Source: Perna viridis
Taxonomy: Eukaryota
Assembly: GCA_037379345.1 (NCBI GenBank)
Contig: CM074517.1
Span: 36,332,001 to 36,396,000, forward strand
Length of the DNA stretch: 64,000 nucleotides
Direction of reading: 5' to 3'
Shown here: one piece after another, positions 24,147-25,218 of the stretch
Numbering within the stretch: position 1 is the stretch's first letter
Layout: every line of letters starts with the position of its first letter
The notes under the pieces: model-generated
Told to the model about the DNA's origin: nothing
Databases searched by the model: none
The model's input: only the letters and a program-made list of their open reading frames with translations
Made by a program: the position numbers and the translations under genes

Positions 24147-25218
24147 TCACTCCTCTTGGGCACTGGATTGGAGATTGGTGACCCAGGTATCTGTCAGGCG
24201 GTGGATGGTCCCATCTGGTAGAATGCAGGTTTCCTCTATTATAATTACATTGACACCTATTGTGGTAAGTCTTCTTTGGTATCTTGACTTCTGCTCTCTT
24301 CTGCACAGGTTGATTGATTCTTTTAAAGTGGTAAATAAAGGGTGGTCAGATAGGGAGAAGGAACACCAGCAAAAATACACGCAGGTCTAAACATAGGTGC
24401 TACTAACTCTTCCTGGACCCTTCTATGGGTTGTAAATTCCATATATCTCTTGGTGTGGTACAATCAATTTCAACGGTAAGAATAGGGGATTATCAGTGAT
24501 TTGAGCAGGTTTCTTAGGTTTGGTGCTCAAGTCAAGAGGCTCGTATTACCCACCAGAGAGTCAATAGTTGTAGTCACAGGAGTGGTTGAGATGAACTTAT
24601 CAGGGTTGGCAGAAGATGAAAGGTCTAGAGGAGTCTCAGAGGCCGGTTGAACACTAACTTCAATAGATGTTGGTACTGTAGTCACAGGGGAGGTTTGGTT
24701 ACTTGGAGCAGACTTGGTTGAACATGGTAGGACTTCTTTCCTACAAACTGTAGCGATAGCTGGTCTTGAGGGGCTGTATGGATCATCTTATGGGAAACCT
24801 GTTGATGACACAGGTGAGGTACATGGGATAGTCTTTGCTACATACTTTTGGAGCATTTGGGAAGAAGGCTGTTTAACGACAGGAGGAGGTGAAGAAACAG
24901 GTGTCTGGTTAAGTAATCGTCTCATAGGAGATGGAGTCCTGGGCTCTACCACCAGCAGGTCAGAAAAGTCTGGCATGCTGTTTTCTAGGTCTGCAGCTAT
25001 TTCTTCAACAGTCTTGCCATAGGACCATGTATTGGGTTGTTCACTGGTACTACGAGGGACTGTAGACCTGATGACTGAACTGGTATTGCCACAGGTATCC
25101 ACTTCAGGTACTTCTGATGAGTTTTCTCATGATGTCTTACCCTATAAGCATCTGTTGATGACTGACAGTAGTCACACCACCTGCAGTAGGTGTACTCTGC
25201 GGGTTGTGACCGTCTCAT
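24147..25218 (-). pseudogene. Gypsy accessory ORF3 (decayed): C2H2-like finger, Ser/Pro/Thr-rich region, two PLDLS motifs
   Basis: ORF pieces 24997-25218, 24788-25102 and 24147-24380 are joined through stops and frameshifts. ETPLDLSSS (PLDLS at 24617-24631) and EPLDLSTKPKK (PLDLS at 24525-24539). Confidence 0.7.

Follow-up and report, generated by a model that had tools for sequence, protein, structure and literature searches.

A group of mollusc Gypsy retrotransposons likely makes its own transcription regulator. Region 24147-25218 (minus strand) of the window, the whole 64,000-nucleotide stretch of Perna viridis DNA analysed here, is a broken copy of a genuine third gene (ORF3) in the interval between integrase and polypurine tract (PPT), and the intact relatives of this gene combine zinc fingers with a PLDLS motif that is a predicted docking site for the host corepressor CtBP. 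Gypsy elements are usually viewed as gag-pol elements with or without env that are controlled externally by the host. ORF3, a real and conserved accessory gene that is apparently undescribed so far, offers a concrete, testable molecule for the long-standing question of whether retrotransposons in animals control their transcription themselves or work against silencing. It also adds a protein domain without a family match, gives an example of a short motif of viral style within a transposon, and accounts for Mytilus gene models filed as host zinc-finger genes or integrase fusions.

The window element is complete in outline, from LTR to LTR (Table 1), and has the features of a Gypsy/Metaviridae LTR retrotransposon: LTRs of the form TG..CA, a target-site duplication of four bases (ATAC) flanking the element on both sides, a primer-binding site (PBS), a PPT, and gag followed by pol in the order PR-RT-RH-IN. 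Its two LTRs align in three matching blocks at 87–90% identity with gaps, and mismatches between the blocks amount to about 5–6% (22 in 526 plus 23 in 390 columns). The insertion in the 3' LTR holds internal duplications (22167-22319 with 23509-23662, and 22098-22169 with 23384-23455). A near-identical PBS-like sequence follows the LTR of L063, an intact element, and the eight tblastn pieces of the window pol are 33–71% identical to the L063 pol, in which the Pfam domains were found. The integrase stop of the window element lies at 25438. Many copies of a repeated fragment with an RT-like frame (31151-31672, plus strand) are scattered over the window (31214-31951, 8756-9468, 13930-14288, 21010-21429 and others), one of them inserted in the 5' LTR. 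The element may sit inside or next to a host gene, given an exon-like frame at 20231-20446 (minus strand) that we take to resemble a nucleobase/ascorbate transporter exon.

Table 1 The Gypsy element in the window and its ORF3 relic, in the direction of the element.
Feature	Position	Strand	Evidence or remark
5' LTR (TG..CA), broken by inserted repeat at about 31214-31951	30722..32434	-	Matches 3' LTR
Primer-binding-site-like sequence, starts TGG	30701..30718	-	Directly follows 5' LTR
gag relic, broken	29160..30552	-	Open pieces; corresponding L063 ORF matches Retrotrans_gag
pol relic, PR-RT-RH-IN order, broken	25438..29034	-	8 tblastn pieces, intact L063 pol as query
Junction of ~100-base deletion	25218..25221	-	Comparison with sister copy L005
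ORF3 zinc finger 2 (CRWC..H..H; CRWCDY..HHEKTH)	25117..25185	-	Identity to intact relatives
ORF3 acidic helix and MPDF..EPRTPSP block, TVEEIAADLENSMPDFSDLLVVEPRTPSPMR	24920..25012	-	Conserved, alignment A4
PLDLS motif 1, predicted CtBP site	24617..24631	-	Number varies among relatives
PLDLS motif 2, the positionally conserved one	24525..24539	-	Aligns with EPLDLS/T of P0023, P0024
ORF3 C-terminal domain, broken at its start	24147..24400	-	Predicted helix and three strands; no family match
Polypurine tract (PPT)	24045..24058	-	Directly before TGTAACA
3' LTR, broken by insertion with duplicated ends at about 22100-23670	21540..24044	-	

All motifs named in a preliminary description of this DNA lie on the minus strand of the ORF3 relic, spread over three frames with stops, which agrees with its view that the copy is dead. 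The two PLDLS motifs, at 24631 and 24539, do use different codons, as had been said, and stand in different frames as well; a six-frame scan of the 64 kb window finds P.DL[ST] at only three places, two of them inside the relic. The zinc finger is also present, but it is the second of two, and finger 1 had been missed. The finger 2 piece is 47–53% identical to intact P0003, P0023 and P0024; its spacing is atypical and it gave no Pfam match in the window copy. The acidic helix with its MPDF..EPRTPSP block reaches a top-letter share of 0.79 in alignment A4. IIEETCILPDGTIHRLTDTW precedes the ORF3 stop at 24147, and the copy ends in EE/TEE like its relatives. The sole close DNA match in the genome is the sister copy L005 on C4 (84–92% identical). 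Relative to L005, a deletion of ~100 bases at 25218-25221 left the window copy without an acceptor-like site or natural start codon and with only a remnant of zinc finger 1. In L005 these extra ~100 bases comprise a stretch of pyrimidines with TAG, then, one base further on, an ATG, and a damaged finger 1; the ATG at 25218 is therefore not the natural start. L005 has itself lost both PLDLS motifs by deletion, so that confirmation of the motifs comes from more distant relatives.

Elsewhere in the genome, copies of the gene recur at the same place within the element. With the C-terminal 35 residues as query, weak matches fell just downstream of integrase matches, and one intact ORF3, used as query without regard to position, matched 35 times at 18 loci. 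In 16 of these 18 ORF3-only loci pol precedes ORF3 on the same strand, so ORF3 is not a one-off capture; of the other two, one is an orphan fragment and one a finger-only match. Fourteen loci belong to the ORF3 type of the window, and PLDL[S/T] can still be read in nine of them and PYDLS in one. No intact ORF3 was present among the copies found in this genome, whose number is a lower bound because the search scored the best candidates. Two elements with a related integrase are without ORF3: in the close relative L045 (G000 C2:19653000-19662500) integrase is followed by about 150 bases, PPT and LTR, and L044, also close in integrase, continues into unrelated repeats.

Intact relatives came from profile searches, which returned 18 and 68 proteins with full-length members of 328–447 aa; Mytilus has several near-identical copies. 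The intact element L063 comprises gag (491 aa), pol (1246 aa, PR-RT-RH-IN), ORF3 (416 aa), PPT and an incomplete LTR, and a stop and 580 non-coding bases separate its pol from ORF3. The third ORF proposed 3' of a Gypsy integrase thus exists in intact form, both as continuous ORFs in relatives and in the gag-pol-ORF3-PPT-LTR order of L063. The preliminary description had made its case depend on a continuous ORF, on conservation of PLDLS and on the absence of a one-off capture, and all three hold. Gene models P0010 and P0285 fuse integrase to ORF3, P0022 is named 'ZKSCAN', and members of one cluster are modelled likewise; these fusions and names look like annotation artefacts, yet they display the adjacency to pol, also in a distant family. 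The precomputed Pfam entry of P0022 names PF00096 alone and not the KRAB and SCAN domains that 'ZKSCAN' implies, and six relatives scanned against Pfam (a set without P0022 itself) matched only fingers or integrase.

From N to C terminus, an intact ORF3 protein holds two C2H2 fingers, an acidic helix with MPDF..EPxTPSP, a linker, PLDLS and a C-terminal domain of ~70 residues. The linker is rich in Pro, Ser and Thr (27–33% over the whole proteins) and modelled below pLDDT 50, and both fingers of P0024 are predicted to be folded, at pLDDT about 90. Finger 1 lies above the Pfam zf-C2H2 cut-off in three of the six database proteins holding it (P0003, P0004, P0008) and under it in P0006, P0010 and P0011; its recognition helix differs between families. 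The C-terminal domain equals the acidic block in conservation and is modelled as a helix and three strands (pLDDT 80–87, pTM 0.41). What had been noted as a compact C-terminal block is a conserved domain of ~70 aa in intact relatives, with no match in Pfam and no usable match in Atlas. Its model returned no Foldseek match at E<=0.001 in the pdb and viral sets and a best VIA-align Z of 4.7, none being >=5; such blank searches with a predicted structure neither prove nor disprove a new fold. Assignment to I73R was rejected (best E 0.069 in a PDB sequence search). At the very C terminus, 14 of 15 listed intact proteins end in EE, mostly TEE, possibly another short motif.

The earlier judgement that ORF3 is not env also stands. 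The highest Kyte-Doolittle value over 19 residues is 0.49–1.41 in the 13 intact proteins, by a hydropathy scan rather than a dedicated predictor, so that no hydrophobic window exceeds 1.41 in any of the 13. Pfam gave matches to zinc fingers and to no env-like fusogen family, the fold search covering the C-terminal model only, and the search of viral contigs gave no relative.

Conservation among relatives, which the preliminary description had proposed to check, is clear for the PLDLS motif itself. PxDL[S/T] occurs in 12 of 13 near-full-length relatives, against 0.59 expected from shuffles, with the reservation that these are not independent events because the proteins are related and three of them close; gag and pol of L063 are free of it. 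The exception, P0019, has RLDLS and PMDLR instead. A family only 30% identical (P0070-P0073) retains the motif. P, D and L are invariant in all 12 rows of alignment A2, and in alignment A4 (16 rows) the motif columns have a top-letter share of 0.94, versus 0.39 before and 0.42 after them. In these alignments the motif appears as a conserved island within a variable, disordered linker. Its number is fluid, since relatives often gain copies through local duplication, as seen in the extra motifs of P0004, P0011 and P0023.

The host has a CtBP gene, with exons on G000 C3 that are 71–100% identical to Mytilus CtBP, N-terminal part included. Complex modelling, which had been suggested as a check, used Mytilus CtBP (P0085) and residues 222–262 of P0024 (41 residues) together with three controls. 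It placed the motif (P0024 residues 235–243) on residues 36–75 in the N-terminal domain of CtBP with a score of 0.64, against 0.01 for the best control; the runs agree in >=51% of contacts and partner pLDDT is >=49. Of 78 solved pairs 51 came up to the score mark, as did 2 of 108 mismatched ones, a calibration that may not carry over to peptides or disordered chains. CtBP-peptide complexes have already been solved, so the model speaks of likeness and not of binding, and the score probably derives from likeness to these solved complexes. On motif and model together, PLDLS is predicted to dock host CtBP. A finger-plus-PLDLS layout is how cellular factors recruit CtBP, and adenovirus E1A binds CtBP through PLDLS, according to the available part of PMC9907507.

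Codon differences counted between natural copies point to purifying selection on ORF3 comparable to that on pol. Within families, dN/dS is below 1 in 32 of 32 ORF3 pairs (0.18–0.97), the outcome that the preliminary description had asked to be looked for; these pairs share branches and are not independent, and dN is biased downwards because only codons passing a filter for similarity to an intact relative were counted. The window and L005 copies give 0.37 on 141 codons. For pol the ratio is 0.39–1.23 (25 pairs), and both genes are pulled towards 1 because of decay after insertion. Between families, ORF3 has saturated synonymous sites (pS 0.78–0.98) with pN of 0.29–0.44, and pol has pN of 0.22–0.39 (listed pairs have >=25 codons, between families >=30). 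The ORF3 copies of the window and L063 show 88 third-position differences versus 54 and 38 at the other positions.

ORF3 is likely to be expressed by splicing to an acceptor just before its ATG, as judged from sequence features and contig ends. Of the 18 finger-bearing loci, 4, 6 or 8 have an acceptor-like site and close to it an ATG ahead of finger 1, against backgrounds of 1.4%, 3.7% and 11%, at thresholds chosen after looking at the data and relaxed step by step. L005 has the same arrangement, an anatomy that the preliminary description had missed. The ORF3 of L063 is present, at least in part, in 23 of 24 listed sequencing runs, four of which were examined contig by contig against L063. 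In X1 and X6, from two studies and only guessed to be RNA runs, ORF3 contigs start at 5958 and 5959, the predicted acceptor, behind 29 and 14 foreign letters, respectively. The two foreign ends differ from each other and match neither L063, with its incomplete LTR, nor the window; that of X6 opens with five letters identical to the end of L063, no more than a hint at the missing middle of that LTR. A contig of X18 passes straight through the predicted acceptor, and four joints of this run were rejected as splice junctions on account of short sides and non-GT/AG ends. No joints across the element are listed for RNA runs. X5, which is recorded as RNA, has cover in 29 of 30 bins. That most of gag and pol is uncovered in X1 and X6 carries no weight: ORF3 served to select these runs, and absence cannot be read from contigs. 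Ahead of finger 1, L027 and L029 carry CAG and then ACCACCATG, a textbook Kozak context. L053, L034 and L036 have an acceptor-like site and no ATG before the finger, and the start codon of their ORF3 could belong to an exon further upstream.

A profile of the C-terminal domain drew 98 proteins from 1.84 billion. Among the 42 new ones of >=240 aa, 14 have a finger near the N terminus, two match the motif strictly and four under relaxed rules, and three are unrelated repeat proteins. We also inspected 38 integrase loci picked as relatives, partly through ORF3 matches: the C-terminal domain lies downstream in 17 (eight of which helped to build the profile), and nine, belonging to further Gypsy lineages in this genome, have a BTB domain instead (L053, L058, L059, L061, L062, L022, L027, L029 and L034). 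The BTB-type ORF3s consist of fingers, a charged linker and a C-terminal BTB, which matches Pfam BTB_2 in L059 (E 8e-16), and PxDLS was found in none of the nine. As the wider group is mostly without the motif, CtBP docking is not its core function. Fingers and the same C-terminal domain without PLDLS occur in L060, L111, L033, L056, L057 and L032 and in P0203, P0210, P0219 and others; such ORF3s often carry an acidic tail behind the C-terminal domain, and one cluster includes Argopecten members.

The integrase tree has 34 of the 38 rows (L049, L052, L109 and L029 were too short), a midpoint root and no reference elements (Osvaldo, Gmr1, MolGy). In it, a starred group (97/90) unites the window element with L005, L063 and five more, the BTB-type loci fall inside one 10-row group that is not starred (83/91), and the L047 family has no settled place. 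The BTB label of L043 was discarded as noise (E 0.0035). PLDLS is thus the trait of one branch within a wider zinc-finger ORF3 group, a point missed in the preliminary description; it would be laid over an older finger-plus-effector plan, and it was perhaps gained separately more than once. Tentatively, a broad marine-invertebrate Gypsy branch may well consist of 'complex' retrotransposons with their own modular transcription factor, in which a two-finger head would read the cognate element and swappable tails would act as effectors, either a KCTD-type BTB or the new domain, the latter with or without CtBP-binding PLDLS. If so, they would be a case of an animal LTR retrotransposon that uses a host corepressor to control its own chromatin, comparable to Tax/Tas in retroviruses and VANC in plants.

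For the ORF3 of the window's type, we put the probability at roughly 0.5 that it works in the nucleus as a regulator of the element encoding it, docks CtBP and most likely represses. The protein would be made from spliced RNA, act in the nucleus and bind the DNA of its own element, presumably in the LTR, through its two C2H2 fingers; docking of host CtBP by PLDLS would then damp the element's own transcription. Were the spliced RNA to start in the LTR, the protein would feed back negatively on the promoter from which it is made. The same parts could also be read as an activator or anti-silencing factor, which we regard as the less likely course though a serious one: the fingers would find the element, the acidic block would activate, and PLDLS would either hold CtBP off host repressors or tune the activator. 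The acidic-hydrophobic helix block is conserved and resembles an activation motif, which would fit an activator, and the repeated gain of extra PLDLS motifs would fit a sponge. A factor that binds DNA and CtBP at once, however, normally delivers CtBP to that DNA. Titration would have its model in the PLDLS of E1A (PMC9907507), and family-specific recognition helices would suit a family-specific anti-silencing of the kind described in the available text for VANC (PMC6719617).

It is improbable that ORF3 acts after transcription, in the particle or integration complex, with fingers and CtBP tethering integration to chosen chromatin, or by binding element RNA. C2H2 fingers can bind RNA or protein, finger 2 is atypical, and the well-conserved C-terminal domain has no assigned function; but the ORF3 of L063 is separate, with its own acceptor and ATG, and is not a pol fusion, and the integrase-ORF3 fusions P0010 and P0285 are gene models, to be set against the stop and non-coding spacer of L063. 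A role of PLDLS for another partner, or as a structural part of the C-terminal domain, would account for the fairly constant 42–56 residues between the last motif and that domain in most proteins checked. We nevertheless think it very doubtful, as the motif lies in a region modelled below pLDDT 50, has been duplicated independently, matches the canonical form letter for letter and models onto CtBP. Hardly credible, finally, is a recently captured host gene fragment in neutral decay. Such a fragment would explain why all ORF3 copies found in this genome are broken and why some database models bear host-like names, e.g. ZKSCAN, but ORF3 keeps the same position in elements with saturated synonymous sites, is intact and multi-copy in Mytilus, and has pol upstream at nearly all ORF3-only loci.

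The preliminary description knew of no precedent among LTR retrotransposons, and we likewise found no published account of a Gypsy ORF3 with zinc fingers, PLDLS or a BTB domain; the literature covered excludes Repbase, GyDB and most subscription journals, where an entry may note fingers. In layout, ORF3 recalls Tas, Tax and Tat of complex retroviruses, which are encoded by a regulatory ORF near the 3' LTR, come from spliced RNA and act on the LTR; these follow env and activate. Drosophila gypsy env is also expressed from spliced RNA. Errantivirus env shares the place between pol and 3' LTR (PMC13524379, available text), whereas the mollusc ORF3 has zinc fingers and disorder in place of a signal peptide, transmembrane segment or fusogen fold (the fold search being limited to the C-terminal model). 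Non-env ORF3s are known in rotifers and plants. Those of bdelloid LTR retrotransposons (GDSL, DEDDy, coiled-coil, TM) are likewise family-specific, located after pol and expressed from spliced messages, but they are enzymes or membrane proteins, and 'zinc finger' and 'BTB' are absent from the available text (PMC5408684). The additional ORFs of plants, the Grande accessory gene among them, lie in the 3' internal region, and some are nuclear with a proposed regulatory role; the nuclear ones discussed are antisense, however, and the accessible part of the review is without 'zinc' or 'repress' (PMC7264820). Among family-specific accessory regulators of plant DNA transposons, VANC of VANDAL elements is a transposon-encoded protein acting on its own family, but it removes methylation, has no homology shown to ORF3, and differs from it in that the predicted partner of ORF3 is a corepressor (PMC6719617, in the part available). 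ZNF366, ZNF516 and KLF3 are among the cellular PLDLS zinc-finger repressors. Like these repressors and adenovirus E1A, ORF3 has PLDLS in a disordered region, and it shares the finger-plus-PLDLS layout of the cellular proteins (PMC9907507, available text); ORF3 differs from them in being encoded by an LTR retrotransposon, in having only two fingers, and in its C-terminal domain without a match.
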